NCBI GenBank assembly: GCA_963754235.1
Contig: CAVWFK010000036.1
Location: forward strand, 1-64,000
Direction: 5' to 3'
Length of the DNA stretch: 64,000 nucleotides
From: an uncultured Alphaproteobacteria bacterium
GTDB taxonomy: Bacteria; Pseudomonadota; Alphaproteobacteria; Acetobacterales; Acetobacteraceae
Both the position numbers and the translations under genes were made by a program. This document shows positions 938 through 62,705 of the stretch, in pieces. The first letter of the stretch is position 1. Every line of letters begins with the position of its first letter. A model generated the notes under the pieces. That model did not search any database. It saw only the letters and a list, made by a program, of their open reading frames with translations, and was not told the DNA's origin.

Positions 938-1068
938 ACCGTCATGGTCGGCGAAGGCCGACCATCCACGTCTTTGGTGCGGCCGCGAAGTCGTGGATGC
1001 TCGGCCGGAGCCTGTCCTCGAGCGGGCCTTCGGCCCGACCCGGGGGCCGAGCATGACGGGGTTGGTTC
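938..1068. repeat. MITE/REP-like triple-hairpin element, copy A (long form)
   Basis: 'CCGTCATGGTCGGCGAAGGCCGACCATCCACGTCTTTGGTGCGGCCGCGAAGTCGTGGATGCTCGGCC...GGCCGAGCATGACGGGG'. It consists of nested palindromes and is one of six copies in the window. Confidence 0.6.
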
Positions 1069-1082
1069 GACCCCGTTGATTG

Positions 1083-1442
1083 TCACCCCACACCCGCGCT
1101 CAGCAAAAACAACAGCCCGCAAGCGAGGGCCGCGCCAAAGCACGCCGCCACGCTTGCCGCGGTCCGCTCCTGCCAGCCGGCGAACTCGATCGCGAGAACG
1201 CGCAGGCCGCAGCAGAGATGCACCGCGAGCGAGACCACAAGCCCGAACTCCAGCGCCTTGCCGAGCGGGTTCGCGGTCAGCGCCAGGAAACGGTCGAGCG
1301 CCGGCGCACCGGCGATCGCGGTGCCGAGCGCCGCGAAGTGCAGCGGCAGGAAGATGCTGAGCGCGATACCGGAGACGCGATGCACGACCGACGCAACCAG
1401 TCCCGGCCGCCGGCGCAGGCGAATGGCGACCGTGCCGTTCAT
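1083..1442 (-). CDS. SQR/QFR-type hydrophobic membrane anchor subunit (about 119 aa)
   Basis: Internal start 'MNGTVAIRLRRRPGLVASVVHRVSGIALSIFLPLHF...' within ORF 1083..1817, found by codon counting. Three predicted TM helices. ATGA start/stop overlap with the upstream gene. Confidence 0.55.
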   Translation of the reverse strand: MNGTVAIRLRRRPGLVASVVHRVSGIALSIFLPLHFAALGTAIAGAPALDRFLALTANPLGKALEFGLVVSLAVHLCCGLRVLAIEFAGWQERTAASVAACFGAALACGLLFLLSAGVG

Positions 1443-1768
1443 ATCGCATAGAGCCCATACGCCGCCCGCAATCCAAGCACGGCGATGACGCACGCAACCG
1501 CGACGAGCGCCGCATCGACGCCGCGCCCCGACCAGCCCGCCCACTCGCGCAGCACCGTGCGCAGGCCGATCGGTGCATGAACCGAGGCCGCGAGCACAAA
1601 CAGCGCATAGAAGGCGAAGAAAAGAAAATTGCCGCGCGTGCGGCCGAGGATTGCGCCGGCGGTCAGGCCGTGCTGTGCGGCATAGAGGATGGTCGCCAGA
1701 TGCACGGCAACCGCGACCGCGAGCACGGCCGCGGTTGCGCGCTGGGCAAGGAACAGCGCCGGGTTCAT
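1439..1768 (-). CDS. SQR/QFR-type membrane anchor subunit (about 109 aa)
   Basis: 'MNPALFLAQRATAAVLAVAVAVHLATILYAAQHG...', hydrophobic. Its ATG overlaps the stop of the Fe-S subunit gene (ATGA). Confidence 0.55.
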   Translation of the reverse strand: MNPALFLAQRATAAVLAVAVAVHLATILYAAQHGLTAGAILGRTRGNFLFFAFYALFVLAASVHAPIGLRTVLREWAGWSGRGVDAALVAVACVIAVLGLRAAYGLYAI

Positions 1769-2472
1769 CGCCGCCACGCGGCCCGCACCATCGCACGCTT
1801 GAGGCCGGCGATCGCATAGGTCGGCGCCAGGTGCTTCGGGCAATGCTCGGTGCAGCTCATGTGCGTGTGGCAGCACTGGCAGCCGCCATCGGCCGAGATC
1901 GCTGCAAGCCGCGCCGCGTCACCCCGATCGCGCACATCGTTCACCAGGCTCCAGGCACGGTTGAGCGCCGCCGGGCCGAGATAATCGGCATCCCACGCCA
2001 CCACCTCGCAGGCAGCGTAGCAGACGCCGCAGCCGATGCACTCGATCGCCGCGTCGGCGGCCCGGCGCGCGGCGCTGTCGGGGCAAACGACGGCGAAGTC
2101 GCGCGCCGGCTCCGCCCCCGGCTCGAACGCCCCGCCCGCGCGTTGCCACCTGTCGAAGAACGGCGACATGTCGACGACAAGATCCTTCACGATCGGCAGA
2201 TTGCGCAGCGGCGCCAGCGTGATCGCTCCGTCGTCGAGGCTTGCCACGCGCGTGCGGCAGGTCCAGCGCGGCTCTCCGTTCACCATCATGGCGCACGACC
2301 CGCACATGCCGACGCGACAGGCAAAGCGATAGGCCAGCGAGGCGTCCTGCGTGCGCTGGATCGCGGTCACGACGTCGAGCACGGTCTGGCTCTCCTGCCG
2401 CGCGACCGCGAAGGACTGGAAGGCGCCGTCCTCGCCGCCGCGCCAGACGCGCACGTCGAGCATCGCACTCAT
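1765..2472 (-). CDS. succinate dehydrogenase/fumarate reductase iron-sulfur subunit (SdhB/FrdB-like)
   Basis: 'MSAMLDVRVW..' with a 2Fe-2S motif 'FACRVGMCGSCAMMVNGEPRWTC', a 4Fe-4S motif 'ECIGCGVCYAAC' and a 3Fe-4S motif 'GGCQCCHTHMSCTEHCP'. About 236 aa. The start overlaps the permease stop by 4 nt. Confidence 0.85.
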   Translation of the reverse strand: MSAMLDVRVWRGGEDGAFQSFAVARQESQTVLDVVTAIQRTQDASLAYRFACRVGMCGSCAMMVNGEPRWTCRTRVASLDDGAITLAPLRNLPIVKDLVVDMSPFFDRWQRAGGAFEPGAEPARDFAVVCPDSAARRAADAAIECIGCGVCYAACEVVAWDADYLGPAALNRAWSLVNDVRDRGDAARLAAISADGGCQCCHTHMSCTEHCPKHLAPTYAIAGLKRAMVRAAWRR

Positions 2473-3344
2473 CGCTGCATCCCCCAGCGCCGCACGGTGC
2501 GCACCTCGATCGCGCGGAAGATCACGCTCTCGACCAGCAGCCCGATCACGATCACCGTCAGCAGCCCGGCGAACACGCGCGCGGTCAGCAATTCCTCGCG
2601 CGCCTCGTAGATGTACCAGCCAAGCCCGCCCGAGCGCGCCGAGACGCCGAACACCAACTCCGCCGCGATCAGCGTGCGCCACGCGAACGCCCAGCCGATC
2701 TTCAAGCCCGCCAGGATCGAAGGAAACGCCGCCGGGATCAGGATATGGACGACGTAGCGCACTCCGGAGAGGCCGTAATTGCGCCCGCTCATCCGCAGCA
2801 CCTCGGGGACCGAGCGGAAGCCGGAATTGGTGTTGAGCGCGATCGCCCACAGCGTGCCGTGGATCAGCACGAACACCATCGAGGGGATGCCGAGGCCGAA
2901 CCAGATCAAAGCGAGCGGCAGCAGTGCGATCGCCGGCAGCGGATTGAACATCGCCGTCAGCGTCGCCAAAATGTCGCTGCCGAGCTGCGTCGAGACCGCG
3001 AGCGTCGTCAGCACCGCGGCGGTCGCGACCCCCGCCGCATAGCCGATCACCAGCACTTCGAGCGAGGTGGCGATGCGATTGAGCAGCTCGCCCGTGACCA
3101 GATCGCTCACCAGGACGCTCACGGTCTCGGTCAAAGTCGGGAACAGCAGCGGGTTTCCGAGCCACATCGCATAGAATTGCCAGAGCAGCGCGAGCGCCAG
3201 CAGGATAAGCCCGCGCCGCAGCGCCAGATTGTTCTGCAGCCGCTCGAATGTCGGCAACGGCCGCACGACCGCGCCGATGCCGCTCACGTCTCCCGGCACG
3301 CGCTCGAACTCCGGGCGCAGCGGTGCGATACCGTCCGCGTTCAC
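2469..3344 (-). CDS. ABC transporter permease (NitT/TauT/SsuC-like family)
   Basis: C-terminal 291 aa of ORF 2469..3986 with multiple TM segments ('..LIPAAFPSILAGLKIGWAFAWRTLIAAELV..'). The likely GTG start overlaps the ATPase stop (GTGA). Confidence 0.75.
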   Translation of the reverse strand: MNADGIAPLRPEFERVPGDVSGIGAVVRPLPTFERLQNNLALRRGLILLALALLWQFYAMWLGNPLLFPTLTETVSVLVSDLVTGELLNRIATSLEVLVIGYAAGVATAAVLTTLAVSTQLGSDILATLTAMFNPLPAIALLPLALIWFGLGIPSMVFVLIHGTLWAIALNTNSGFRSVPEVLRMSGRNYGLSGVRYVVHILIPAAFPSILAGLKIGWAFAWRTLIAAELVFGVSARSGGLGWYIYEAREELLTARVFAGLLTVIVIGLLVESVIFRAIEVRTVRRWGMQR

Positions 3345-4129
3345 GCCACGTCCTCCGCCAGCGGCAGATCGAACAGCAGGCCGTGGATGCGCCGCGCGAG
3401 CCGGCCGATTGTGGGATCGTCGGCGCCGCGATGGCGAAACCCGTCCGAGTTCAGCTCGGCGCGCACGCGCCCCGGATGCGGCGACAGCACCAGGATGCGC
3501 GAGCCGATCAGCACCGCCTCCTCGATCGAGTGGGTGACGAACATCACGGTGAAGCGGAGCTGGTCCCACAGACCCATCAGCTCTTCCTGCATGGTGCGGC
3601 GGGTGAGCGCGTCGAGCGCCGCGAAGGGTTCGTCCATCAGCAGGATGTCGGGTGCCATCGCCATCGCCCGCGCGATCGCGACCCGCATCTTCATCCCCCC
3701 CGAGAGCATGTGCGGATAGGCGTCCGCGAACTTGGCAAGCTGCACCTTCTCCAGGATTGCCATCGCGCGGTCGCTGGCGTCGCGGCCGCGGAAGCGCCCG
3801 CTCGCGCGCATCGGGAACAGCACGTTGCCGAGTACCGTCTTCCACGGCATCAGTTGCTCGAACTCCTGGAACACCATCATCCGGTCCGGGCCGGGGCGCA
3901 CGACCGGCCGGCCGCGCAGCGCGATGCTGCCCTCGGCGGGCGCCATGAAGCCGCCGATCGCCTTCAGCAGTGTCGATTTGCCGCACCCGGAGGGGCCGAG
4001 GATCACGAACCGATCACCCGCCTCGACGGTCAGATCGACGCGCCAGGTCGCGGTGACCAGATCGTTCGGGGTCTTGTATTGCAGCGTCAGGCCGCGAACT
4101 TCGAGCAGCGGACTAGCCTCGGGCTGCAT
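3341..4129 (-). CDS. ABC transporter ATP-binding protein (NitT/TauT family)
   Basis: Walker A 'GPSGCGKST', signature 'LSGGMKMRVAIARA', Walker B 'ILLMDEPFAALD'. Start chosen at the internal 'MQPEASPLLEVRGL'. Confidence 0.85.
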   Translation of the reverse strand: MQPEASPLLEVRGLTLQYKTPNDLVTATWRVDLTVEAGDRFVILGPSGCGKSTLLKAIGGFMAPAEGSIALRGRPVVRPGPDRMMVFQEFEQLMPWKTVLGNVLFPMRASGRFRGRDASDRAMAILEKVQLAKFADAYPHMLSGGMKMRVAIARAMAMAPDILLMDEPFAALDALTRRTMQEELMGLWDQLRFTVMFVTHSIEEAVLIGSRILVLSPHPGRVRAELNSDGFRHRGADDPTIGRLARRIHGLLFDLPLAEDVA

Positions 4130-4137
4130 CGCGCCGC

Positions 4138-5151: not shown

Positions 5152-5213
5152 GTGCCTCCCTCCGGCGCGTTCTTGATGAGCGGCCCGAAATTAGAGCGGC
5201 GCTGCGCGAGGGG

Positions 5214-5924
5214 TCAAACCGCCACCGCCATCGCCATCGCGATCGCCGCCGCGGCTGCGCCCGGATCGGCCGCACCCGTGATCGGCCTTCCGACCACCAC
5301 CAGGTCGGCCCCGCTCGCGACCGCCTGCGCAGGTGTCGCGACCCGCGCCTGATCGCCCGCCTCGCTGCCTATCGGTCGCACGCCCGGCACCACCAGCAGC
5401 GGCGCCGGGCCGAGTGCCGCGCGGAGTGCCGCCACCTCGTGCGCGCTGCACACCAGCCCGTCGGCGCCGGCCGCGATCGCGAGCCGGCCGAGCCGCAGCA
5501 CCTGCGCCGCCGGCTCGCCTTCTACTCCCGTCGCCGCGAGCGCCGCCGCATCGAGGCTGGTCAGCACCGTCACCGCCAGCAGAAGCGGCGGATCGGCGGC
5601 CGCCGCACCCGCCTCGTGGGCCGCGGCGATCATCGCGGCGCCACCCGCCGCGTGCACCGTCAGCATCGCCGGGCGCAGCGCCAGCACCGCACGCACTGCC
5701 CCCGCAACCGTATTCGGGATGTCGTGCAGCTTGAGGTCCAGGAACAGCGGCACGCCGCTTCGCCCGGCCACCTCCCGCACGCCCGCCGGCCCGTTCGCCG
5801 CGAAAAACTCAAGGCCGAGCTTCACGCCGGCGCAATGCGGCGCGACCGCTTCGGCCCAGGCGCGCGCCTGTCGTGGATCGGCGGTGTCGAGCGCCGCGAT
5901 CAGCCGCGAGCGGCGCTCAGGCAT
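5214..5924 (-). CDS. pyrF: orotidine 5'-phosphate decarboxylase
   Basis: '..[27 protein letters not shown]..', 236 aa. Confidence 0.9.
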
Positions 5925-5962
5925 CCGACCTCAGGCATCCGACCTCAGGCATCCGGCGGCGG
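5920..5962. repeat. 14-bp tandem repeat x3 ('GGTCGGATGCCTGA') spanning the lapA stop and the pyrF start codon
   Basis: 'ctcaggcatccgacctcaggcatccgacctcaggcatccgg' read directly from the sequence. Confidence 0.6.
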
Positions 5963-6256
5963 CAGCGGCGCGGGACGGGGCGAGAGCCGCGCCTGAAAGT
6001 CCTGCAATTCGGCCTCCAGAAGCCGCACCCGCCGCTCGGCCAGGTGCGCGCGCCGGCGCTGCACGAGGGCACTGCCCCAGACCACCAGCGCGCCCAGCAG
6101 CAGGCCGATCGCCAACCCCGCCAGCACCGCGAACGAGAGCGGCGCCTGCATCGCGAAATCGGTCGGCCAGAAGCCGAGCTGCACCGGCTGCGGGTTCGAC
6201 AGCGCGAACACGACCAGGATCAGCAGCACCGGAAACAGCACGATCATGCGCAACAC
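5945..6256 (-). CDS. LapA/DUF1049-family inner-membrane protein
   Basis: Two-TM small protein 'MLRMIVLFPVLLILVVFALS..'. Sits in the conserved position between ihfB and pyrF. Confidence 0.65.
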   Translation of the reverse strand: MLRMIVLFPVLLILVVFALSNPQPVQLGFWPTDFAMQAPLSFAVLAGLAIGLLLGALVVWGSALVQRRRAHLAERRVRLLEAELQDFQARLSPRPAPLPPPDA

Positions 6257-6271
6257 GATGGATAGCCCCGA

Positions 6272-6598: not shown

Positions 6599-7536
6599 TC
6601 TGCCCCCGGCCCCGAAGGCTGCCAAAGCGCCAGCGGCAAGTCAAGCATAAGTGATTGCAGCGCAACACTTTTGTCAAGGGCGCTGCCGAGCAGGGCGGGC
6701 AGGAGACTGGCCCGGACCGAGGCGAGCCAGCCTCGCTTCGGCGCCACCTTGCGCATCGGCAGCGCGGCCGGGACCGCCTTCGTGCGCGCGAGCCACGCCC
6801 GCGCCGACGGCTCGCCCCCGATCGCATCGACCAGCCCCAGCGCCAGTGCCTGCCGGCCGGTATAGGCGCGCCCGTCCGCGAGCCGCCGCACCCGGGCCGG
6901 ATCCATGTGCCGGCCGGTCGCGACCATGACCACGAACTGGTCGTAGAGATCGTCCACGATGCCTTGCAGCACCTTCTGCCCCGCCGGGCTGGTCGGGTGC
7001 AGGGGGCTCGGCTGGTCCTTGAGCGGCCCGGAGACCAGCGTGTCGGTGGTGATGCCGAGCTTGCCCAGCAGGCCCGAGACCTCGCCGGTTGCCATCAGCA
7101 CGCCGATCGAGCCGGTGAGCGTGCCTTCGCGGGCGAAGATGCGCGCCGCCGGCACCGCGACCATGTAGCCGGCCGAGGCGGCGAGCCCGCCCATCACCGC
7201 GACCACCGGCTTGACCTTCGCCACGCTCGCGATCGCGTCGTGCAACGCCTGCCCGCCGGCGACACTGCCGCCAGGACTGTCGATCGCCACGATCAGCGCC
7301 ACCGCATGGCGGTCGGTCGCGAGGGCGCCCACGCGGGCGTCGAGTGCGTCGTCCTCGGTGATGAGACCGTTGACCGCGAGCCGCGCGACGTAGCGCCCCT
7401 CCCCGGCGGCGCCGCCCAGCCGCACGAACGCGACCAGCAGCGCCGCGGCCACCGCCAGCACGGCGACGATCTGCCATGCGGCGAGACGGCGCTTGAGGCG
7501 CTGCCGCTCGCTCAGCAGATCGGCCGTGAACGGCAT
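6595..7536 (-). CDS. sppA: signal peptide peptidase SppA (36K type)
   Basis: 313 aa, N-terminal TM segment, '[11 protein letters not shown]' serine-protease motif. Confidence 0.85.
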
Positions 7537-7585: not shown

Positions 7586-9349
<1,764 letters not shown>

Positions 9350-13917: not shown

Positions 13918-15342
13918 ATGGCGAATTTCGCATTCGAGGGGCAGACCTGGAGCTCTCCAGTCATTACCTGGAGCTTCGAGGACCAGACGTATCCCACCGA
14001 TGCGCGCACGCCGTTCTCGGAGCCAATCTCCAGTCCCTATCAGGCGACTGTGCTCGCCGCGCTGGCGCGCTGGCAGGGGGTCTCCGGCATCGCCTTCGAA
14101 CAGGTGGCGGACAGCCCCAACCCGTCGCAGGCGGCCGACATCCGGATCGGCTTCGCCGCGTTGCCCGGCAGCACTGAGATCGGCGAGACCGATCTGACGC
14201 GGGCACCCGACGGCACCAATTTCCTGCCCGACGTGCTGGTCCGGCTGGAGGATCCGGCATTCGATCCGCTGTTCTCCGACTCCAGCGGCGCGCTCACCTA
14301 CCAGGGCACCGCGACCACGCTCTACCAGGTGGCGCTGCACGAGATCGGCCACGCGCTCGGCCTCAACCATTCCACCGACCCGCACGCCGTGATGTTTCCC
14401 ACCGTCGGGCCGGACAATCCCGACCTCGACGGCTCCGACATCGCCGGCATCGACGTCCTCTATCCGCCGACGGCTCCGCCACCGCCGCCGCCGCCCGTAG
14501 TCGCGGCGGGCAGCCTCTATACCGATGGCGGCCAGAGTGCGGCGATCACCACCGGAACTGGCGCCAATACCGTGGTCGGCTCGGTCGGCAACGACACCAT
14601 CACCACCGGCACCGGCACCAACCTGATCGGCCCCGGCAGCGGCAACGATCTGATCGTCTCGAACGGCGCCGACACGATCTTCCCCGGCGGCGGCTCGAAC
14701 ACCGTGTTCGCGGCCGGGCACGTGCTGGCGGCGGTCGGCGCCAGCACGCTCTTCTTCATCAACGGCAGCCAGAGCAGCACCGTGCTCGGCGGCGGCGCCG
14801 GCAATGCGGTGATCAACGGCGGCGTGGGCGGCGGATTGTTCGCAGCCGGCGCGGGCGGCGGCAGCGTGATCTTCGCCGGTGCCGGCGCGAGCACCATCTT
14901 CGGCGCGGCCAGTGGCGACGTGCTGTTCGCCGGCGGTAGCGCCCCCGACCTGCTGCTCGCCGGCGCCGGCAACGAGACCCTCTCCGGCCTCGGCTCCAGC
15001 GGCGCCAACCAGCTTTACGGCGGCAGCGGCAACGATCTGATCGGCGGCGGGGCGGGGCCCGAAAGCTTCTTCGCCGGCACCGGCAACGACACCTTCATCG
15101 CCGGCAGCGGCGCCGATCTCTATGCATTCAGCAACGGCGCCGCGGGCGGGCAGGATCTGATCGAGGGGTTCAACCAGGGCAAGGGCGATCTGGTGAGCCT
15201 GCAAGGCTACGCCGCGGGTGCCGCCGCGGCGGCGGTCGCCGGGCAGGCCGCCTCGGCTGCCGGCACTACGCTCACGCTCGCCGACAACACCACGATCACC
15301 TTCGCCGGTGTCGGACACCTCTCCACGTCCGCCTTCGCCTGA
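13918..15342 (+). CDS. secreted zinc metalloprotease, matrixin/serralysin-like (M10) domain plus C-terminal RTX repeats
   Basis: 'HEIGHALGLNH' with Met-turn 'AVMFP'. Poly-Pro linker. Gly-rich 'GGSGNDLIGGGAG', 'AGTGNDTFIAGSGAD' beta-roll repeats. The uncleaved hydrophobic C-terminus is typical of T1SS cargo. Confidence 0.8.
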   Translation: MANFAFEGQTWSSPVITWSFEDQTYPTDARTPFSEPISSPYQATVLAALARWQGVSGIAFEQVADSPNPSQAADIRIGFAALPGSTEIGETDLTRAPDGTNFLPDVLVRLEDPAFDPLFSDSSGALTYQGTATTLYQVALHEIGHALGLNHSTDPHAVMFPTVGPDNPDLDGSDIAGIDVLYPPTAPPPPPPPVVAAGSLYTDGGQSAAITTGTGANTVVGSVGNDTITTGTGTNLIGPGSGNDLIVSNGADTIFPGGGSNTVFAAGHVLAAVGASTLFFINGSQSSTVLGGGAGNAVINGGVGGGLFAAGAGGGSVIFAGAGASTIFGAASGDVLFAGGSAPDLLLAGAGNETLSGLGSSGANQLYGGSGNDLIGGGAGPESFFAGTGNDTFIAGSGADLYAFSNGAAGGQDLIEGFNQGKGDLVSLQGYAAGAAAAAVAGQAASAAGTTLTLADNTTITFAGVGHLSTSAFA

Positions 15343-20201: not shown

Positions 20202-20202
20202 A

Positions 20203-21226: not shown

Positions 21227-21375
21227 GGCGTCCTTAATACCAACTCGCTGATGGAGCTGAAATAAATGGCTGTTCTTGCTTATCATGCAAGGGACGTCGG
21301 CGCTTCCGCCGTCAGGCCGGGAACGGTCGCGAGTCTGTGCCGCGCCTCGCGGATGCGCTTCCGCCGCGGCTCCCC

Positions 21376-21449
21376 GAGCGTCCTTCCCCACCCCTCGGCA
21401 CCCAGCCACGCTACCCGCCCGGCCGCGATCGTGGCGGCCACGCGCGGCG
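21376..21449. repeat. about 75-bp direct repeat, copy 1 (duplicate of the phnM-like 3' end)
   Basis: About 92% identical to 22226-22300. Still encodes '..PRVAATIAAGRVAWLGAEGWGRTL' out of any gene context. Confidence 0.6.
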
Positions 21450-22191: not shown

Positions 22192-23380
22192 TCAACGGAA
22201 AGGTGCTGCATTGCAGGCGGACCCGGCGAGCGTCCTTCCCCACCCCTCGGCGCCCAGCCACGCCACCCGCCCGGCCGCGATCGTGGCGACGAGGCGCGGC
22301 GTGGCCCCCCGCATCGGCGACCAGCAGCAGATCGGCGCGCTTGCCGGCCGCGATCGTGCCGCGATCGGCGAGCCCGCAGGCTGCCGCCGGATTGGCCGAA
22401 ACGAGCCGCCACGCCGCCGCCAGATCGCGCACGCCACGCGACGCCAGCACGAACGCCGCGCGCAGCATCGCCGGATAGAAATAGTCGCTGGAGAGCACGG
22501 TGCAGAGTCCGGCCTCGGCGAGCCGCGCCGCCGACGCCCAGCCGAGATGCGAGCGCCCGCGCACCACGTTGGGGCTGCCCATCACCACCCAGTCGCCCGC
22601 TTCGCGCGCGGCCTCGGCGACCGCCTCCGCCATCGGGAACTCGCAGATGCGCGCGCCGCGGGCGCGGAAGGCGGCGCGCGTCGCGATGCTTTCGTCGTCG
22701 TGGCTCGCCATCGGCAGCCCGGCCGCTCGCGCCGCCGCCGCGATCGCGTCGAGCCCGGCCGGAACGGCACCGGCACCCCTCTCCACCCTGGCCGCGAGCG
22801 CGCGGAACGCCTCAAGCGTCATGCCGGCGCGCTCGCCGTATTTCGCGCCCAACACCGGGTCGGCGATCCGGCGCAGGATCGTCGGCGTGTGGTCGTTGAA
22901 CGCCAGCAGATGCACGCGGCCGCCGGCAATGTCGGCGCGCGCCATGTCGAGTGCCGCGACGTTGAACGCCTCCCAGCGCAGATGGATGCGCATGTCGCAC
23001 ACGGCGCGTGCGCGGTGCGCCTCCATCGCGTCGAGCAGCGCGCGCCACGTCTCGGCACCACGCAGCCCGGGCTCCCAGGAGAGCGTGACACCGTGATAGG
23101 CGGTGGTGATGCCGTTCGCCAGCAGCTGCGCTTCGGTATCGGCCAGCGCGACGGACGGCGGAAAATCCACGCCCGGCCGCGGCTGCAATTGCCGCTCGAA
23201 CGCATCGCCGTGGATATCGACGATGCCGGGCAGCACCAGCAGGCCGCGCGCATCGATCGCGCAACCGGCCTCGGCACACCCGATGGCCGCGATCCGACCC
23301 TCGGCCAGCAGCAGATCGGCCGTTTCCCAATTCCCCTCGCCGAGCAGCAGGCGGCCGCCGATGACACCGAGCGGCGTCAC
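22192..23380 (-). CDS. phnM: PhnM-like amidohydrolase (second phnM copy), apparent -1 frameshift near a C6 run at about 22305-22310
   Basis: '..PGIVDIHGDAFERQ..GKRADLLLVADAGG' in one frame. The expected C-terminus '..PRLVATIAAGRVAWLGAEGW..*' is in another frame (ORF 22192..22437). GTG start overlaps the phnF stop. Confidence 0.7.
22226..22300. repeat. about 75-bp direct repeat, copy 2 (native phnM-like 3' end)
   Basis: See copy 1. The two copies bracket vapBC. Confidence 0.6.
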
Positions 23381-24120: not shown

Positions 24121-24154
24121 GGAACGTGGCCATTATTGGCATTGCAGCAATACC

Positions 24155-24283
24155 GTCATGGTCGGCGAAGGCCGACCATCCACGTCTTTCGTGACGCGGC
24201 AAAGTCGTGGATGCTCGGCCGGAGCCTGTCCTCGGGCGGGCCTTCGGCCCGACCCGGGGGCCGAGCATGACGGGCTGGTTAGA
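24155..24283. repeat. MITE/REP-like element copy B (long form) in the phnF/phnG divergent region
   Basis: Near-identical to copy A. Confidence 0.6.
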
Positions 24284-28091: not shown

Positions 28092-28117
28092 CCACGCACC
28101 CCTCATGGCCGGCGAAT

Positions 28118-28278
28118 GCCGGATCGTCGTCATGCTCGGCGAAGGCCGCACACTCGTCATGCTCGGCGGAGGCCGAGCATCCACGACTTTGCGGGCCCAC
28201 GAAAGGCGTGGATGGTCGGCCGGAGCCTGTCCTCGGGCGGGCCTTCGGCCCGACCCGGGGGCCGACCATGACGGTGAG
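28118..28278. repeat. MITE/REP-like element copy C (expanded form) between phnK and phnL
   Basis: 'GTCATGCTCGGCGAAGGCCG..' with an internal duplication. Sits in the only sizeable intergenic gap of the phnG-M operon. Confidence 0.6.
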
Positions 28279-30399: not shown

Positions 30400-31760
30400 G
30401 GCTGCTCTTCAGGCGAGCGGCCAGAAAGGGGAAGGTTTCTTGGTTTGGCTGCTGCGGGGCGTTCCTTCGTCCCGGCCTTCGTCCCGGCCTGTGTGGTTGC
30501 GGGCGCCGCGCGCAGCGGCGGTCAAGGGGGGCCGGAGGCCCCCGCCGCAGGCGGCGCGCAGCGCCCTTGACGGCCGCGAGCACGGCACCACGCTGGAGTG
30601 GGCCGCAGCTGCGGCCATCATTGCGCCACCTGTGCCGCGGGGCGGCGATAGGTCTCACCGGAGATCAGCATCGCCCAGGCGATGCGGGCGGTTTTCGCCG
30701 CCTGCGCCAAGACCACGACCTTCACCGGCCGGCGAGCCAGGATGCCGCGCTGCCAGGCGGTGGCGCGATCGGTGCGGCTGCGGGCATAGCGCATGATCGT
30801 GCTGGCGCCGAGGGCCAACAGCTTGCGCAGCCGGATGTCGCCCTGGCGGCTGATGCCGCTCGCGCGCCGCTTGCCCGCACTCGAATGCTCAAGCGGTGTC
30901 AGGCCGCACCAGGCGGCGAAGTCGCGGGCGCTGCGGAACTGCCGACCGTCGCCGATTGCGGTGACGATGGCGTGGGCGGTGATCGGGCCAACGCCGGGGA
31001 TGGTGGCCAGCCGGCGCATCACCGGGTGCTCGCGGGCGGCCGCGACGATGCGTTCCTCCAGCGCCGCAATGTCGCGCTGCAACCTCTCGATGGTCTTCAC
31101 CATGATGCGCAGCGGCACCCGAAGCGGCTCCGGGATCGCAACCTCCGCCGTGTCGTCGACCCGCCGCGCCAGCTCGGCAAAGCCCCGCCGGCCCTGGGCG
31201 GCGATGATGCCGAACTCGGCCAGCAGGCTGCGCGCGCAGTTCGTCAGCTGGGTCTGCTGCTTCAGCAGCAGATCGCGCGCGCGTTCCAGGCCACGCGCGG
31301 CCTGCTGCTCGATGCTCTTGATCGGCACGAAGCGCATGTTCGGCCGGCACACCGCCGCGCAGATGGCTTCGGCATCACGCGCGTCGTTCTTGTTGCGCCT
31401 GACGAAGGGCTTCACATAGGCGGCCGGGATCAGCCGCACCTCATGGCCGAGCGCCCGCAGCTGGCGCGCCCAGTAATGCGCGCTGCCGCAGGCCTCGATC
31501 CCCACCAGGGCGGGCGACTGCTTGGTGAAGAACGGCTCGACCTGGGTCCGGCGCAGCTTCTTCTGCTCGATCACCTTGCCGGTGCTGTCGGCCACATGCA
31601 CCTGGAACACAGACTTGGCGATATCCAGGCCGATTATGGTAGCGTTCATGACGGACGGTCTCCGTTGCTGGTTGGTCAAACCCCAGCTTGGCACATAGAT
31701 GCCGTCAGGGGGCCGTCCACCCAGCATCGCGAGGCGCGCTGCGCCGTGGCGATCCAGGCG
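30400..31760 (-). mobile_element. IS110-family insertion sequence (boundaries approximate)
   Basis: Contains the IS110 transposase gene. Inserted in the phnM / DUF1045-gene spacer. No obvious terminal inverted repeats, as is typical of IS110. Confidence 0.6.
30618..31649 (-). CDS. IS110 family transposase
   Basis: 'MNATIIGLDIAKSVFQVHV..' DEDD N-domain, C-terminal '..CGLTPLEHSSAGKRR..'. Confidence 0.85.
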   Translation of the reverse strand: MNATIIGLDIAKSVFQVHVADSTGKVIEQKKLRRTQVEPFFTKQSPALVGIEACGSAHYWARQLRALGHEVRLIPAAYVKPFVRRNKNDARDAEAICAAVCRPNMRFVPIKSIEQQAARGLERARDLLLKQQTQLTNCARSLLAEFGIIAAQGRRGFAELARRVDDTAEVAIPEPLRVPLRIMVKTIERLQRDIAALEERIVAAAREHPVMRRLATIPGVGPITAHAIVTAIGDGRQFRSARDFAAWCGLTPLEHSSAGKRRASGISRQGDIRLRKLLALGASTIMRYARSRTDRATAWQRGILARRPVKVVVLAQAAKTARIAWAMLISGETYRRPAAQVAQ

Positions 31761-31813
31761 GGCCGCTCCGTGCCTCCCGCCTGGATCGCCACGCCGCCCA
31801 GCGGCGGCTCGCG

Positions 31814-32512
31814 ATGACGGCTGCGCCAGGTCCCGTTCTGTCTAGGGTCGCGCTCTACTGGGCGCCGGCGGCCGACGATCCGCTGTGGCGTGCGGGCAAT
31901 ACATGGCTCGGCCGCGACCCCGAGACCGCCGATCGCCTGCTTCCTCCCGACCTGCCCGGCATCGCGGGCCTGACCGAAGCGCCGCGGCGCTATGGCTTCC
32001 ACGCGACGCTGAAGCCGCCGATGCGCCTCGCCGGATCGTGGCAGGCGTTCCGCCGCGACGCGGCGATGCTCGCCGCGCGCACCGCCGCCTTCCCGATGCC
32101 GCCGCTCGCGGTCGCCGACCTCGCCGGCTTCCTGGCGTTGCGCGAGGCGGCACCCTGCCCGGCGCTGCACGCCTTCGCCGATGCCTGCGTCGCAGCACTC
32201 GACGCGCACCGCGCGCCGCTTGACCCTGCCGAGCAGGCAGACCGGCGCGCGGCCGGCCTGTCGGCGGCGGAGGAGGCAAATCTGCTGCGCTGGGGCTATC
32301 CTTACGTATTCGATACGTTCCGCTTCCACGCGACACTCACCCGCCGGCTGAGTGCGGAAGAGCAGGCGTGGGTCGCCCCCGCCGCCCGCGCGCATTTCGC
32401 CGCCGCGCTCGCTGCCGATCGCCGGGTCACCGAACTCTGCCTGTTCACCGAGGCGGCCCCCGGTGCGCCGTTCATGCTGGCAGAGCGGCTGCCGCTAGCC
32501 GGTTCAGGATAG
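31814..32512 (+). CDS. DUF1045 (2H-phosphoesterase-like) putative phosphonate metabolism protein
   Basis: '..YWAPAADDPLWRAGNTWLGRD..FHATLKPP..FHATLTRR' two H-x-T-x motifs. Confidence 0.75.
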   Translation: MTAAPGPVLSRVALYWAPAADDPLWRAGNTWLGRDPETADRLLPPDLPGIAGLTEAPRRYGFHATLKPPMRLAGSWQAFRRDAAMLAARTAAFPMPPLAVADLAGFLALREAAPCPALHAFADACVAALDAHRAPLDPAEQADRRAAGLSAAEEANLLRWGYPYVFDTFRFHATLTRRLSAEEQAWVAPAARAHFAAALAADRRVTELCLFTEAAPGAPFMLAERLPLAGSG

Positions 32513-39339: not shown

Positions 39340-39428
39340 TCGTCATGCTCGGAAGGCCGAGCATCCACGACTTTGCGGCCGCGCGAAAGACGTGGATGGT
39401 CGGCCTTCGCCGACCATGACGGGTTGGT
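39340..39428. repeat. MITE/REP-like element copy D (short form, inverted orientation)
   Basis: 'GTCATGCTCGGAAGGCCGAGCATCCACGACTTTGCGGCCGCGCGAAAGACGTGGATGGTCGGCCTTCGCCGACCATGACGG'. Confidence 0.6.
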
Positions 39429-39709: not shown

Positions 39710-39732
39710 TATCCCGTTTCCGAAATTCCCCG

Positions 39733-39826
39733 TCATTGCGAGGAGCGGAGCGACGAAGCAATCCAGTGCGGTGCCGCGCGCAAGGCCCTGGATTGCTTCG
39801 CTTCGCTCGCAATGACGGGAATTGTC
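39733..39826. terminator. long near-perfect inverted repeat / hairpin
   Basis: 'CCGTCATTGCGAGGAGCGGAGCGACGAAGCAATCCAG' ... 'CTGGATTGCTTCGCTTCGCTCGCAATGACGG'. Confidence 0.4.
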
Positions 39827-42616: not shown

Positions 42617-42770
42617 GCCCTCTCCGCCCCTCGGGGCGGAGAGGGTTGGGTGAGGTGGGGGCCGGCCGCGCGATGACCGATGCGGCGCGAGCGGCTAAGA
42701 GTATTCTCGCGGCGTCGGCGTTTCCCCCACCTCACCCCGACCCTCCCGCCCCGAGGGGCGGAGAGGGAGT
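42617..42770. repeat. large inverted repeat (arms about 45 bp, each with its own core palindrome 'CTCCGCCCCTCGGGGCGGAG')
   Basis: A second MITE/REP-like family. Confidence 0.5.
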
Positions 42771-52866: not shown

Positions 52867-53027
52867 GGGAGGCGCTCCAACCCTGCAACCGAACGGAGCA
52901 CGCCAACCGATGGACGCGCGTTCGCGATGCCGCAGCGGTTACGCGCCACCCTCCCCCGCGTTCCCGCGTTTGCGGTCAAATCGTGGCAGCGGGGCAGGGC
53001 GATCGCATTTGGACACGATGTTACCGT

Positions 53028-53113
53028 CATGGTCGGTGGAGGCCGACCATCCACGTCTTTCGTGCGGCCGCATCGTCGTGGATGCTCGGCATTCGCCGAG
53101 CATGACGGGGTTG
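53028..53113. repeat. MITE/REP-like element copy E (short form)
   Basis: 'CCGTCATGGTCGGTGGAGGCCGACCATCCACGTCTTTCGTGCGGCCGCATCGTCGTGGATGCTCGGCATTCGCCGAGCATGACGGGG'. Confidence 0.6.
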
Positions 53114-53139: not shown

Positions 53140-54026
53140 ATGCAGATCGAAGTGGTCGTGGACGCGGATGCGACGATCGGGGAGTCGCCGACCTGGGTGC
53201 CCGGCGAGAACGCGCTCTACTGGATCGACGTCAAAAGGCCCGCGCTCTATCGCTTCGATATCGCAAGCAATGTCCAGCACACCTGGCCGATGCCGAGCGA
53301 TATCGGTGCCTTCGCCCTGGCCGCGGACCCGCCGGGAGCAGTGGTGGCACTGCGGACCGGGATGTTCCGGCTCGACTTCGCATCCGGGTCACTCGACCTC
53401 CCTCGCCCCGCCGCCCTTCGACCCGGCGCTGTTCCGCTTCAATGAAGGTGCGTGCGACAGGTACCGGCCGCTTCTGGGTGGGCGTCATGTTCGACCCGCT
53501 TGATGGTACGCCGCCACCGCAGAAATCATCCCTGCACAGCTTGACCCTGCGCGGCGGCCTGCGCCCCGAACCGGACGCCGCCGAACTGCATAACGGCATG
53601 GCGTGGAGCCCCGACGGGCGCGAGTTCTACCTGTCGCATAGCCAGCATCAGGAGGTGTTCGCCTTCGCGTTCGACGCGGCGGCCGGCCGGCTCGGCGCGC
53701 GCCGCCTTTTCGTGCGCACCCCGAAGGCGCTTGGCCTGCCCGATGGCGCTGCCATCGACAGCGAAGGCGGCTACTGGTGCGCGCTGCACGGCGGCAGCCG
53801 GTTGCGGCGCTACACGGTGGCGGGTGAAATGGACCGCGACATCGCGCTCCCGGTGAGCCAGCCGACCATGTGCGCCTTTGCAGGCCCCGCCCTCGACGTG
53901 CTCTACGTGACCAGCGCCACCGACAAGCTCACGCCGGAGCAGCGCCGAGCCGAGCCGCTGGCCGGCGCGCTGCTGCGGCTGCGGCCCGGCGAGAGGGGCA
54001 TCCCCCGGCCCTGCATGGTGCGCTGA
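53140..54026 (+). pseudogene. SMP-30/gluconolactonase/LRE-family protein disrupted by two +1 frameshifts
   Basis: N-part 'MQIEVVVDADATIGESPTWVPGENALYWIDV..' (to 53445). The conserved 'FRFNEGACDR' lies in a third frame. The C-part 'GRFWVGVMFDPLDG..' starts at 53442. Confidence 0.7.
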
Positions 54027-55922: not shown

Positions 55923-55923
55923 T

Positions 55924-56883: not shown

Positions 56884-57132
56884 CCGCCGCCTCCCGGCAC
56901 CGCCGGCCATCCTGCCTCAGCCGTCATCGCGAGCCGGCCGCTTGGCCGGCGTGGCGATCCAGGCCCGCGGCACCGTGCGGCGCGCCTGGACTGCTTCGTC
57001 GCATTGCTCCTCGCAGTGACGGGGCGCGATGGGTCACGCGTTCAGAAAACCGCCACCGCCTGGTGACTGCGGCGATCGGTGCTACCCTACGGCACTGCCG
57101 CGCGGAAGCCGGGCGGCTGCGAAGGACCACCG

Positions 57133-59225: not shown

Positions 59226-59740
59226 TGCCGCCTGAGAAGGCCGATCGCGCGGTATGGGCCGACTACGTGCGCAGCGTCAGGCCGCTGTCGGGACGGGAGC
59301 ACCCCGAGGCCGTCGCACCGCCCCCTCCCCCCGTCCCCCTCCCGCAAGGGGAGGGGGAGAAACGAACTGCGCGTCCCCGTCGCCCCGCCGCGGCCGCCCC
59401 GCTCGTCGTCGGCGACGCGCCCGCCGGTGTCGATGCCGCGTCGTGGAACCGGCTGCGCACCGGCCGGCTCGCGCCGGAGCGCACGCTCGACCTGCACGGC
59501 CGCACCGCGCACGCGGCCTACGACGCGCTCACCGCCTTCCTGCACCGGGCGCAGGCCGACCGGGTGCGCTGCGTCGAGATCATCACCGGGCGCGGCGAGG
59601 GTGCCGGCGGCGGCGTGATCCGCCGCGAGCTGCCGCTCTGGCTCAATCTCGACGCGCTGCGACCGCTGGTGCTCGGCGCCGCCTATCCGCATCCGGCCAA
59701 TTCGGGCGCGGTGCGGCTGCTGCTGCGGCGGCCGCGATGA
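59222..59740 (+). CDS. Smr-domain protein
   Basis: 'TLDLHGRTAHAAYDALTAFL..ITGRG'. Pro-rich linker. Confidence 0.8.
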   Translation: MMPPEKADRAVWADYVRSVRPLSGREHPEAVAPPPPPVPLPQGEGEKRTARPRRPAAAAPLVVGDAPAGVDAASWNRLRTGRLAPERTLDLHGRTAHAAYDALTAFLHRAQADRVRCVEIITGRGEGAGGGVIRRELPLWLNLDALRPLVLGAAYPHPANSGAVRLLLRRPR

Positions 59741-60138
59741 CGCCGTTCGGCGCCCGGGTCCGCGCGCTCCGCGCCGAGCGCCGCACCACGCAGAAGGCGC
59801 TCGCCGCCGAACTCGGCGTCTCGGCCGCCTATCTCTCGGCGCTGGAGCACGGCAGGCGCGGCGCGCCGGCCAGCGGATTGGTGCATCAGGTATGCGAGAT
59901 TTTCGGCCTGATCTGGGACGAGGCGGACGAGCTCGCGCGCCTCGCCCGCCTCTCGCGCCCGCGCGTGCGGGTCAACACCGGCGGGCTGACGCCGGAGCAG
60001 ACGGCGTTGGCGAACCGGCTGTCGCAGACGATCCGGCGGCTGCCGCCGGAGACCGTCGCCGCGATGCACGCACTCCTGGATCAGACCTCGCCGCAGCCCA
60101 AGCCGCGCTTGCGCCGGGCCGCGGGTCGAGGGCGGTAG
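59737..60138 (+). CDS. XRE-family helix-turn-helix regulator
   Basis: '..TQKALAAELGVSAAYLSALEHG..'. ATGA overlap with the Smr gene. Confidence 0.65.
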   Translation: MTPFGARVRALRAERRTTQKALAAELGVSAAYLSALEHGRRGAPASGLVHQVCEIFGLIWDEADELARLARLSRPRVRVNTGGLTPEQTALANRLSQTIRRLPPETVAAMHALLDQTSPQPKPRLRRAAGRGR

Positions 60139-60163
60139 GAGAATTGGAAGCGCGGTCGATCCT

Positions 60164-60544
60164 TCACTTTGCGACCAGCATCGGCCCCAGCGCCCGGCCG
60201 CCGAAGATGTGCACGTGGAAGTGCGGCACGTCCTGGTGGCTGTCCGGCCCCATATTGGCGAGCACCCGATACCCCGGCGCCTCCAGCCCGAGCTGCTTCG
60301 CGACCGCCGCGACCGCGCGCCAGAAGCCGACGATCTCCGCCTCGCCGGCGCCGGTCGCGAAATCAGTGAGCGAGACGAACTTCCCGCGCGGGATCACCAG
60401 CACATGCACCGGCGCCTGCGGATTGATGTCGTGAAAGGCGACCGCCCACTCATCCTCGAACACCCGCCGCGACGGGATCTCGCCGCGCAGAATCTTGGCG
60501 AAGATGTTCTGGTCGTCGTACGGACCAAGCCCGCTCACCGGCAT
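60164..60544 (-). CDS. HIT-family (HinT-like) hydrolase
   Basis: '..HFHVHIFGG'. Confidence 0.85.
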   Translation of the reverse strand: MPVSGLGPYDDQNIFAKILRGEIPSRRVFEDEWAVAFHDINPQAPVHVLVIPRGKFVSLTDFATGAGEAEIVGFWRAVAAVAKQLGLEAPGYRVLANMGPDSHQDVPHFHVHIFGGRALGPMLVAK

Positions 60545-60561
60545 CGCATCCACCCCGATCG

Positions 60562-61044
60562 TCAGGGAATCTTCGTCGTCTGCAGCCCGAAGGCAAGCGG
60601 CAGGGCGCGGGCGCGCGACGCCTTCTCGGCGATGCCGCTGATGCCTTCGCGGCGTTGCAGCTCGGCCCAGACCTCGTCGGCCCGCACCCCCGCATCCACC
60701 CACAGCACGATCAGATGATAGAGCACGTCGGCGCTCTCGCCGATCAGGGCGTCGCGGTTGCCGGAGAGCGCCTCGATCAGGCACTCGACCGCCTCCTCGC
60801 CGAATTTCTGCGCGACCTTCGGCGTGCCGCGCGAGAGCAGCCGGGCGGAGTGGCTGACCGAGGGATCGGCCGACCGGCGCTCCATCACCACCGCCCACAG
60901 CCGGTCGAGCACCGCAGGGCTGGCGCCGAGCGCCAGCGGCGGCGGTGGCGGGGCGGCACTCTCCGGCGCGGCGGCGCGTCGCTTGCGCGGCTTTGCCCGT
61001 TTGTTCCGCGGCTTCGCCGGCTTCTTCTTGGTGGCCTTCGCCAT
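60562..61044 (-). CDS. hisE: phosphoribosyl-ATP pyrophosphatase HisE with about 50-aa Lys/Pro-rich N-terminal extension
   Basis: '..[32 protein letters not shown]..' preceded by '[36 protein letters not shown]'. ATG lies 7 nt after the hisF stop. Confidence 0.75.
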
Positions 61045-61053
61045 CGCCCGGGC

Positions 61054-61827
61054 TCAGGCCGCCAGGCGCGGAGGCGGCCGCACCGGTAGCCCGGCTTCCG
61101 CGAGCGCTGCTTTCGCGTCCGCGATCGAGAACGTGCCGAAATGGAATACGCTCGCGGCCAGCAGCCCCGTCGCCCCCGCGCGCGCGCCCTCGACGAAATG
61201 TGCGAGCGACCCGACGCCGCCCGAGGCCACCACCGGCAGCCGCACCGCGCCGCACACCGCGCGCAGCAGGTCGAGATCGAATCCCGCCCCGGTGCCGTCC
61301 CGATCCATGCTGGTGAGCAGAATCTCGCCGGCGCCGCACGCCGCGACCTGCCGGCACCAGGCGACCGCGTCGATCCCGGTGCCGCGCCGGCCGCCGTGGG
61401 TGAACACCTCCCAACGGGCCTCGCCGGCTTGGCGCGCATCGACCGCGACCACGACGCACTGGCTGCCGAATTTCTCCGCCGCCTCGCGCACCAGATCGGG
61501 GCGGGCGACTGCGGCCGAATTGATGCTGCACTTGTCCGCACCCGCCAGCAGCAGGCGGCGCATGTCCTCGGTGGTACGGATGCCGCCGCCCACGGTCAGC
61601 GGCAGGAAGATGCGCGCCGCCGTCCGTGCCGCCACGTCGCGGATGGTGTCGCGATTCTCGTGGCTCGCGGTAATGTCGAGGAAGGTGAGTTCGTCGGCGC
61701 CCGCCGCGTCATAGATGGCGGCCTGCTCCACCGGATCGCCGGCATCGCGCAGGCTGACGAAGTTGACGCCCTTGACGACGCGCCCGTCCTTCACGTCCAG
61801 GCAGGGAATGACGCGCAGCTTCAACAA
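61054..61827 (-). CDS. hisF: imidazole glycerol phosphate synthase cyclase subunit
   Basis: '[20 protein letters not shown]..'. Confidence 0.95.
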
Positions 61828-61851
61828 CGGAACAACGCCTTTCAGCCGCCC

Positions 61852-62613
61852 CTAGACCATCGCGCCCGATTCGGTGGCAAGCGCGGCCATCGCCGCCGCG
61901 ATATCGATGCGCCCGTCATAGAGCGCGCGGCCGACGATCACGCCCTCGATCCGGCCGCGCGGCAGCGCCGCCGCGGCCTCCGCCACCGCGCGCAGATCAT
62001 CGAGGCTGCCGATCCCGCCGCTCGCGATCACCGGGGTCGAGAGCGCCGCCGCGAGCGCCGCCGTCGCCGCGACATTGGCGCCGGTCAGCATCCCGTCGCG
62101 CGCGATGTCGGTGTGGATGATCGCCGCCGCCCCCCACTCCTCGCAGCGGCGCGCGAGGTCGAGTGCGGTGATCGCGGAGGGCTCGATCCAGCCCTCGGTC
62201 GCGACCATCCCATCACGCGCGTCGATCCCGATGGCGATCCGGCCGGGAAAGGTTCGACACGCCTCGGCGACCAGCGCCGGATGCTTCACCGCCGCACTGC
62301 CCAGGATGGCCCGAGCCACGCCGACGTCGAGCCAACGCCCGATCGTGGCAAGGTCCCGCAAGCCGCCGCCGAGCTGCACCGGGACCGTTGCCGCCGCCAG
62401 GATCGCTGTGATCGCGGGCGCGTTGACGCTGCGACCCAGGGTCGCGCCGTCGAGATCGACGACGTGCAGCCAGCGGCAGCCGGCCTGGGCCCACGCCCGC
62501 GCCTGCGCCGCGGGGTCGGCGGAATAGATCGTGGCAAGATCCATGTCGCCCTGGCGCAACCGCACGCAGGCCCCGCCCTTGAGGTCGATCGCGGGATAAA
62601 GGGTCAGGTTCAT
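61852..62613 (-). CDS. hisA: ProFAR isomerase
   Basis: 'MNLTLYPAIDLKGGACVRL..'. Confidence 0.9.
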   Translation of the reverse strand: MNLTLYPAIDLKGGACVRLRQGDMDLATIYSADPAAQARAWAQAGCRWLHVVDLDGATLGRSVNAPAITAILAAATVPVQLGGGLRDLATIGRWLDVGVARAILGSAAVKHPALVAEACRTFPGRIAIGIDARDGMVATEGWIEPSAITALDLARRCEEWGAAAIIHTDIARDGMLTGANVAATAALAAALSTPVIASGGIGSLDDLRAVAEAAAALPRGRIEGVIVGRALYDGRIDIAAAMAALATESGAMV

Positions 62614-62616
62614 CTC

Positions 62617-62705
62617 CCCGTCATGGTCGGCGGAGGCCGACCATCCACGTCTTTCTGCCGCGCGGGATAGTGAAGTCGTGGATGGTCGGCCTTCGCCGAC
62701 CATGA
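62617..62705. repeat. MITE/REP-like element copy F, abutting the hisA start codon
   Basis: 'CCGTCATGGTCGGCGGAGGCCGACCATCCACG..GACCATGACGGGG'. Its terminal 'GACGGGGAG' supplies the SD 3-4 nt before the hisA ATG. Confidence 0.6.

Follow-up and report, generated by a model that had tools for sequence, protein, structure and literature searches.

Six palindromic repeats in the window

The window analysed here is a 64,000-nt stretch of DNA (contig CAVWFK010000036.1, positions 1 to 64,000; G+C content 69.6%) from an uncultured alphaproteobacterium. It contains six copies of a palindromic repeat, which are head-to-head dimers of a CGTC-tagged repetitive extragenic palindrome (REP). All six are intergenic, and their neighbours were named by Pfam matches of the flanking open reading frames (ORFs). 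GGTC and GCTC below denote the two types of arm.

940-1058 (+): copy 1, long head-to-head dimer; left arm 940-970 (GGTC), spacer 971-991, right arm 992-1058 (GCTC), insert 1007-1045; between an Sdh_cyt gene (1083-1817, -) and a fumarase gene (3-884, -)
24154-24272 (+): copy 2, long dimer; left arm 24154-24184, spacer 24185-24205, right arm 24206-24272, insert 24221-24259; between the divergent genes phnF (GntR/UTRA, -) and phnG (+)
28098-28154 (+): two degenerate extra arms in tandem with a 27-nt period (CCTCATGGCCGGCGAATGCCGG.. and CGTCATGCTCGGCGAAGGCCGCACACT), adjoining copy 3 upstream; together with copy 3 a grouped arrangement that begins 7 nt past the phnK stop codon
28155-28273 (-): copy 3, long dimer, core inverted relative to copies 1 and 2; left arm 28155-28185 (GCTC), spacer 28186-28206, right arm 28207-28273 (GGTC), insert 28222-28260; in the phnK/phnL gap, ending 14 nt upstream of the phnL ATG (28288)
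39341-39421 (-): copy 4, short dimer; left arm 39341-39369 (GCTC, 2-nt loop deletion), spacer 39370-39390, right arm 39391-39421 (GGTC); between a methyltransferase gene (+) and an AsnC-like ORF (+)
53025-53107 (+): copy 5, short dimer; left arm 53025-53055 (GGTC), spacer 53056-53076, right arm 53077-53107 (GCTC); between a thiamine pyrophosphate (TPP)-enzyme gene (-) and an ORF of unknown function starting at 53141 (+)
62619-62707 (+): copy 6, short dimer with like arms; left arm 62619-62649, spacer 62650-62676, right arm 62677-62707, with flanks CTCCC/GGGGG that lengthen the palindrome; between the stop codon of a GNAT gene (62739) and the hisA ATG (62613, -), the core ending 5 nt short of the ATG

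Reading the window at each locus confirmed six copies where a preliminary description made from the sequence alone had placed them, in both orientations and in short and long forms, including those at the divergent phnF/phnG promoter, in the phnK/phnL gap and before hisA. Their number is far above chance. The pattern CATCCACG-N10-40-CGTGGATG matched six times in the window, exactly at these loci, and was never matched in 100 dinucleotide-preserving shuffles. The gap in the pattern was needed since the spacer length varies, and a gapless version matched nothing. In a search of the window, the arm 13-mer at 0-1 mismatch was confined to the copy loci, and a repeat finder placed the copies in families D1, D3, D4 and D6, plus many inverted pairs.

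Each copy is composed of a 31-nt arm, a 21-27-nt spacer with complementary ends and a reverse-complement arm, the whole being one palindrome with the CGTC tags outermost. From 5' to 3', the arm comprises the CGTC tag, the stem strand ATGSTCGGC, a GAAG loop, the stem strand GCCGASCAT and CCACG, plus a conserved inner extension, WNTTK. All 12 full arms begin with CGTC (one degenerate extra arm begins with CCTC), and the 3' end of every arm reads ...CAT-CCA-CG. The stem has 9 bp, the first pairs being A-T and T-A, and the loop has 4 nt (GAAG, GGAG, GCAG or GAAT), except in three long-form arms in which a 39-nt insert replaces most of it. The long form, found in copies 1-3, is the short form plus this insert (GGAGCCTGTCCTCGRGCGGGCCTTCGGCCCGACCCGGGG), which sits in the right-arm loop. 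Tag-to-tag lengths are 119 nt in each of copies 1-3 and 81, 83 and 89 nt in copies 4, 5 and 6. Five of the six copies (1-5) combine one GGTC with one GCTC arm, and copy 6 has two GGTC arms. Spacer polarity and the sequence in which the GGTC and GCTC arms follow each other put the core in one orientation in copies 1, 2, 5 and 6 and in the opposite one in copies 3 and 4.

The 39-nt insert, also found at about position 7531 of a related locus (L083), lies in the GCTC arm in copies 1 and 2 and in the GGTC arm in copy 3 (1007-1045, 24221-24259 and 28222-28260), with the same polarity relative to the arm. This pattern suggests independent site-specific insertions into the arm loop or inter-arm recombination.

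The minimum-energy fold of the whole single strand is one long hairpin for every copy, with a predicted stability of z -4.5 to -12.6. The preliminary description proposed three consecutive hairpins. This form, closed by an outer stem, is less stable by 1-3 kcal/mol in the long copies 1-3, by 4-6 kcal/mol in the short copies 4 and 5 with unlike arms, and by 17.6 kcal/mol in copy 6 with like arms; it stands as an accessible alternative conformer and not as the predicted ground state. Stem position 4 covaries among 233 arms from the window and at least 105 related loci: 223 are GGTC..GACC, 10 are GCTC..GAGC and none is mixed. Because this position exists only in two compensated states, the arm's own hairpin is what is preserved.

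CGTC-tagged REPs were described in four families, CGTC-1 to CGTC-4, by Di Nocera, De Gregorio and Rocco (2013, PMC3733652). They have an unpaired terminal CGTC (or TGTC/CCTC) tag, an 8-9-bp stem starting with A-T and T-A, a 4-5-nt loop and a 3-nt CCA tail. Most form head-to-head dimers with the tags outside, like or unlike arms and 20-100-bp spacers whose ends are often complementary. They occur mainly in Alphaproteobacteria, are intergenic, are sometimes nested in other palindromes, and showed no association with tyrosine transposase genes (PMC3733652). The arm in the window has all the features in Table 1 of that work, namely the tag, stem, loop, CCA tail, head-to-head dimers and, in the 878 kb searched for a tyrosine transposase, lack of a linked transposase. 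The REP/MITE-like repeat of the preliminary description (MITE, miniature inverted-repeat transposable element) was therefore right in kind and is made precise here.

A second CGTC-tagged family, missing from that description, forms three head-to-head dimers in the window (39730-39820, 56912-57024 and 31712-31822), with the arm CGTC-ATYGCGAG...GCRAT-CCAG(G) (example: CCGTCATTGCGAGGAGCGGAGCGACGAAGCAATCCAG ... CTGGATTGCTTCGCTTCGCTCGCAATGACGG). Its format is nearer to that of the Neisseria hairpin NTS, introduced below. Counting the six copies, CGTC-type dimers in the window number at least nine and belong to two families.

Distribution in related genomes

We scanned one genome per species with the dimer pattern and obtained at least 105 eight-kb blocks from 10 assemblies of uncultured Alphaproteobacteria. 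Two of these are labelled Defluviicoccus sp., and the hosts are described as a Defluviicoccus-like/Rhodospirillales clade. The related blocks contain at least 104-119 distinct dimers. Among the listed matches, 119 were dimers and 19 were singles, several of the latter being long-form or with deleted partners; solo hairpins of the form CGTCATGGTCGGC-loop-GCCGACCATGACG were present too. The arms are near-invariant across the listed genomes and the spacers vary by lineage, being T/A-rich in most metagenome-assembled genomes (MAGs); those of the window and of the MAGs CAVZPY and CAWCYL are short and G+C-rich.

Rfam 15 gave no match at the gathering score in the whole window, and an E-value scan of copy 2 yielded chance-level matches only (E 0.66-0.96). 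With so many copies and no Rfam match, the repeat is not a structured RNA gene with one member per genome, which the preliminary description had named as the finding that would overturn its reading. A blastn search of copy 6 against a plasmid collection found no match, and a literature search with the arm sequence as a text string found no paper.

Ten orthologous sites could be compared between assemblies. Five retain the dimer, one has a solo hairpin and four lack the dimer or have different content. At the site with a dimer in one MAG and a solo hairpin in another, the difference fits a deletion between direct repeats inside the two arms. Identity in the five conserved pairs is 97% for the arms (296/305), compared with 82% for the spacers and 84% for the flanks. 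Constraint or homogenisation thus acts on the arms but not on the spacers. In two of these pairs, L031/L082 (GAAG/CTTC vs GGCG/CGCC) and L072/L100 (GGAG/CTCC vs GAAG/CTTC), the loops of both arms have shifted together while the spacer is identical or nearly so. This concerted change points to inter-arm correction or to replacement of the whole copy.

As judged by HisA, the nearest relatives of the window are JADEYI01 (94%) and the MAG CAVZPY (87%). The comparison with relatives that the preliminary description had proposed was made at the hisA junction: the dimer is absent from the GNAT/hisA junction of both, which contains unrelated palindromic repeats instead. Together with the dimers in 10 assemblies and the lack of an Rfam family, this bears out the earlier idea of a dispersed repeat. 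In JADEYI01 the junction is occupied by another palindromic family (CCCTCTCCGCCCCTCGGGGCGGAGAGGG + TTGGGTGAGGTGGGGG; 44-nt arms, 62 nt apart), and in CAVZPY it carries a different G/C-tract palindrome (CCCCTCCCGCAAGGGGAGGGG). These repeats were noted at 42618-42767 of the window, L108 1590-1870 and L107 5925-6015. The GNAT/hisA junction is a hot spot for different repeats.

Other repeats accompany the dimers in these genomes. A further tagged hairpin family, with the tail CCACG when dimeric, coexists with the main family in MAGs (L008 about 1620-1650, L016 about 5570-5600, L048 3215-3245 and L073 6860-6950) and fills the L073 site where L004 has the main dimer. In several MAGs, outer inverted repeats, GAGCCTGTC(C/T)G..TTCAG.. 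/ ..CTGAAA..GACAGGCTC, enclose the dimer, which lies about 52-63 nt within them (L050, L001, L015, L020, L025, L040, L045, L046, L058, L067 and L104). The sole clean filled/empty pair, L050 (7283-7465) and L062 (about 5774), shows insertion of such a composite as a whole (about 180 nt), with TA/CTAG at the junction. The composite looks like a separate MITE-like carrier.

Association with a putative ssn-type nuclease gene

Ssn nucleases are single-domain GIY-YIG proteins of about 94 aa whose genes are flanked by their hairpin motif (Chenal et al. 2025, PMC11893778). SsnA binds the CGTC-tagged hairpin NTS (CGTCATTCCCGCGMAVGCGGGAATCYRG) only as single-stranded DNA (ssDNA) and cuts a few nt upstream; its residues Y6, Y17 and E64 were mutated in that work (PMC11893778). 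Where dimers lie close together, the ORFs separating them are ordinary metabolic genes; the exception is L026, in which a 96-aa ORF with a single GIY-YIG domain (PF01541, E 6.5e-17) lies between two dimers 432 nt apart. A homologue 56% identical to the L026 protein is encoded at L048, 390 nt from a dimer. Residues Y7, Y18 and E65 of the L026 protein have the same spacing as the three SsnA residues, a putative correspondence read from the spacing and not from an alignment to SsnA.

We examined the association in a sample of 80 metagenome loci encoding homologues of the L026 protein. A CGTC/TGTC-tagged hairpin was located within 500 nt in 75 of the 80 and on both sides of the gene in 53, at a usual distance of about 50 nt upstream (+ strand) and about 10 nt downstream (- strand). 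The published search string for Ssn-related motifs (SRM), HGTCWYN(0-2)YYVSBRHN(0-5)WNVSBRGN(0-2)RNCYNB, was matched at 33 of the 80 loci. Seven carry the canonical NTS, and the homologues flanked by it have 52-60% identity.

In at least six genomes or metagenome contigs other than that of the window, the gene (about 95 aa) has two copies of this arm around it: the exact arm CGTCATGGTCGGCGAAGGCCGACCATCCACG was found on both sides, with the tags outward, at L112/L115/L120, L190 and L192/L193, the last being from a Dongiaceae MAG. L113 has a variant tag, CGTCGTGG, upstream and a truncated arm downstream, and L189 and L191 have the exact arm on one side, where these short contigs end. The L112 unit spans 487 nt from CGTC to GACG and consists of an arm, about 90 nt, ssn, about 50 nt and an arm. 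The inner ends next to the arms of the ssn units (AGTTTGYC... / ...GGCAAAST) recur at the spacer ends of gene-less dimers, and at L190 a gene-less dimer and an ssn unit on one contig share them. Among the listed matches, 246 spacer ends gave the inner-end consensus W-N-T-T-K-T-T, with TT at 98%, which is common to dimers and ssn units; the window spacers (TCTTTCGTG...GCGGCAAAGT) agree with it.

At 13196-14456 of L190 (ENA contig_19793), an IS110-family transposase gene (DEDD_Tnp_IS110/Transposase_20) adjoins a gene-less dimer. IS110/IS1111 elements target REP-type hairpins. The arms may also serve as insertion targets of the IS110 type.

Drawing on the observed anatomy and dispersal of the repeat, the covariation in its hairpin, the conservation of arms over spacers, the presence or absence at orthologous sites and the arm-ssn linkage, we consider it probable (about 0.72) that the arms act, in ssDNA form, as hairpin sites for a cognate Ssn nuclease whose gene lies elsewhere in the genome, and that the head-to-head dimers are gene-less miniatures of an arm-ssn-arm unit. 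Each arm would fold as ssDNA into a 9-bp hairpin, which the nuclease would recognise; the arm is read as a recognition site because the same hairpin brackets the gene for a GIY-YIG protein of about 95 aa in related genomes. By analogy with Neisseria SsnA, binding would occur only to ssDNA, and cleavage would fall a few nt 5' of the tag, in what is here the pyrimidine-rich outer flank. The 81-119-bp dimers look like miniatures of the unit of about 490 bp because arms and inner ends are common to both, and they have spread through intergenic DNA of the Defluviicoccus-like/Rhodospirillales clade. Judged from sequence, a miniature, gene-less version appears to be the simplest reading; the reverse direction, insertion of an ssn gene into a dimer, is compatible with our data and less simple. 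Binding and cleavage by Ssn, Ssn-dependent spread and any role in handling ssDNA (transformation, replication or repair) are inferred.

Several points weigh against this reading. No ssn homologue was found in the 64-kb window. Of the 12 window arms, 11 fail the SRM string, the lone match being the right arm of copy 5 (53077-53107). The consensus arm fails in the 3' part of the stem, and NTS itself matches. This lowers formal membership and not the functional analogy, because the string was built by hand from NTS-like motifs as a search aid. The putative assignment to the Ssn family was made by size (95-96 aa), PF01541 alone, the Y/Y/E spacing and the flanking motifs rather than by direct comparison with SsnA, and the demonstrated role of Ssn, modulating natural transformation, is limited to Neisseria (PMC11893778). 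The cases of presence and absence are mostly mosaic replacements rather than clean insertions of a single element; the differences in L008/L090, L023/L096 and L004/L073 are mosaic replacements and not clean empty sites. At least some copies travel inside the larger composite with its own outer inverted repeats.

More tentatively, the dimers could be internally deleted, non-autonomous copies of the arm-ssn-arm unit, with the Ssn GIY-YIG nuclease as the enzyme that multiplies them. The shared inner ends, the concerted loop changes and the conserved pyrimidine-rich stretch where SsnA-type enzymes cut are hints of this, and we regard it as possible rather than probable. If true, CGTC REPs, reported in 2013 without a dedicated transposase, would be carried along by an ssDNA mobility system that is driven by a GIY-YIG enzyme and has its parallel in REPIN-RAYT.

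Alternative explanations and comparison with known systems

The preliminary description placed the copies at regulatory junctions and took the end of the element as the Shine-Dalgarno sequence of hisA. One alternative is that each copy is a cis-acting RNA or DNA structure selected at its site, such as a terminator or attenuator, an mRNA stabiliser, a phnF/phnG operator or the hisA ribosome-binding site. The very stable folds, the intergenic position of all copies (some within operons and near start codons) and the known ability of REPs elsewhere to alter mRNA stability and termination (PMC3733652) agree with such a role. However, the gene context of 96 dimers among the listed matches was 52% co-directional, 28% convergent and 20% divergent, compared with 61, 21 and 18% for all adjacent gene pairs in the same DNA, as determined from crude gene calls based on G+C at third positions. 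We thus found no bias of context and no preference for promoters. Co-directional sites carry the dimer in both orientations. No T-run follows any arm in the six copies, so the terminator reading was rejected. The dimer has no Rfam family, and the nearest relatives have unrelated palindromes in its place before hisA.

The Shine-Dalgarno role fared no better. The outer flanks are purine-rich at both ends throughout the family, with the consensus GGRRGGAR and C or T at no more than 2% at positions 5-6. Among the listed matches, 53% of 210 dimer ends contain GGAG, GAGG or AGGA within 10 nt, compared with 8% of random 10-mers, and a plausible ORF start follows within 25 nt at only 17 of the 210, so a general Shine-Dalgarno property was rejected. 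At hisA, GGAG directly abuts the ATG with zero spacing. Such a string is too near the start codon for a canonical ribosome-binding site. Because the purine flank is built into both ends and a start codon rarely follows, the Shine-Dalgarno-like string is part of the extended palindrome of the repeat, and its position at hisA is regarded as incidental. Site-by-site regulatory selection is thus unlikely as the explanation of the copies. Any effects on phn or his expression would be a by-product of inserting a very stable hairpin and not its purpose.

The two remaining alternatives concern mobility, and we consider both more doubtful still. A classical MITE, derived by internal deletion from an insertion sequence (IS) with a DDE transposase and moved by cut-and-paste via terminal inverted repeats with target-site duplications, would account for the long terminal inverted repeats, for the larger unit with outer repeats GAGCCTGTC...GACAGGCTC around the dimer in several MAGs, for the composite inserted at a TA/CTAG site at L050/L062, and for the 39-nt loop insert, whose first letters, GGAGCCTGTC, recur in the outer inverted repeat of the composite. 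Yet the flanks at the core ends are inverted in all six window copies, and a direct target duplication is seen in none of them. No transposase gene with these ends and no parent IS was seen in the DNA sampled, and the composite covers only a subset of the copies in other genomes, the window copies having no outer repeats outside the core. MITE transposition is therefore improbable for the dimer itself. Slightly less probable again is a REPIN, a non-autonomous inverted REP pair copied by a RAYT (REP-associated tyrosine transposase), which is a single-copy, IS200/IS605-like HUH enzyme recognising the ssDNA REP hairpin. An inverted hairpin pair with a spacer, the lack of target-site duplication, the many copies and the vertical persistence at some orthologous sites are all in keeping with it. 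Against this stand the tag, which is CGTC and not GTAG, the gene seen between arms, which encodes a GIY-YIG nuclease, and the lack of linkage between CGTC repeats and tyrosine transposases in the 2013 survey (PMC3733652). In 878 kb (the 105 loci and the window), moreover, tblastn with E. coli RayT yielded no match below E 0.38, and a motif scan (YxxNP with HUH) was likewise negative.

The window has further repeats and a possibly disrupted reading frame. A 75-nt direct repeat, 93% identical, occurs at 21375-21449 and 22227-22301, 852 nt apart. Glycine-rich short-period coding repeats (14583-15124) lie in the ORF 13918-15342 (+) and coding repeats with a 261-nt period (7958-8683) in the ORF 7586-9349 (-); both sets probably belong to repeat-domain proteins unrelated to the dimers. 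Just downstream of copy 5, the ORF 53442-54026 matches an SMP-30/gluconolactonase-like domain from profile position 93, and the preceding ORF, 53141-53445, has no Pfam match; 53141-54026 may be a frameshifted or split gene.

For the phn and his loci, our results mean that the hairpins are genome-wide repeats that happen to lie there, which takes away the case for a dedicated regulatory RNA. The CGTC REP class (2013) and its nuclease partner (2025) are already known; what is new is a family member in uncultured Alphaproteobacteria. Its features of note are its escape from the search string, the ends shared by dimers and ssn units, the concerted changes of the arms and the conserved purine-rich flanks. 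If the arm is an Ssn-type motif missed by the published string, the number of such systems in uncultured Alphaproteobacteria is underestimated wherever a survey relies on that string. Neither the 2013 nor the 2025 paper settles whether CGTC repeats are spread by Ssn nucleases. The arm-ssn-arm unit and its gene-less counterparts, which share its ends and in some cases lie on the same contig, are paired objects suited to testing this.

Compared with CGTC-1 to CGTC-4, the family described here shares the tag, the A-T/T-A start of the stem, the CCA tail, head-to-head dimers with like or unlike arms, nesting and the lack of a linked transposase. It differs in combining a 9-bp stem with a 4-nt loop, where the published families have 8 bp/4 nt or 8-9 bp/5 nt, a distinction made by the list of features and not by consensus sequences, and in its hosts, uncultured Defluviicoccus-like/Rhodospirillales MAGs outside the 2013 survey. 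With NTS and the Ssn-related motifs it has in common the format CGTCAT, stem, loop, stem and ATCC, and, in relatives and not in the window, a single-domain GIY-YIG gene product of about 95 aa whose gene is flanked on both sides by arms with outward tags. Unlike in Ssn systems, the arm mostly escapes the SRM string, nearly all copies are tight head-to-head dimers, and the window has no ssn; the likeness is drawn from nucleotide sequence.

The dimers resemble REPIN-RAYT systems (Bertels and Rainey 2011; Nunvar 2010; Ton-Hoang 2012) in having two inverted REP hairpins with a spacer in a unit of about 100 bp, many copies, vertical persistence, no target duplication and a presumed enzyme gene between repeats. 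They differ from these in the tag and in the associated gene, a GIY-YIG nuclease gene here, no HUH/Y1 transposase having been found in the 878 kb. In arrangement, they are also like bacterial interspersed mosaic elements (BIMEs) of E. coli, rhizobial intergenic mosaic elements (RIMEs) and the dRS3/Correia clusters of Neisseria, in which different repeat families share one intergenic gap. Examples here are copy 3 with its extra arms, a 290-nt mosaic in L008 and the other palindromes at the hisA junction of the relatives. The sequence families differ from those of BIME, RIME and dRS3/Correia, and the likeness is one of arrangement.

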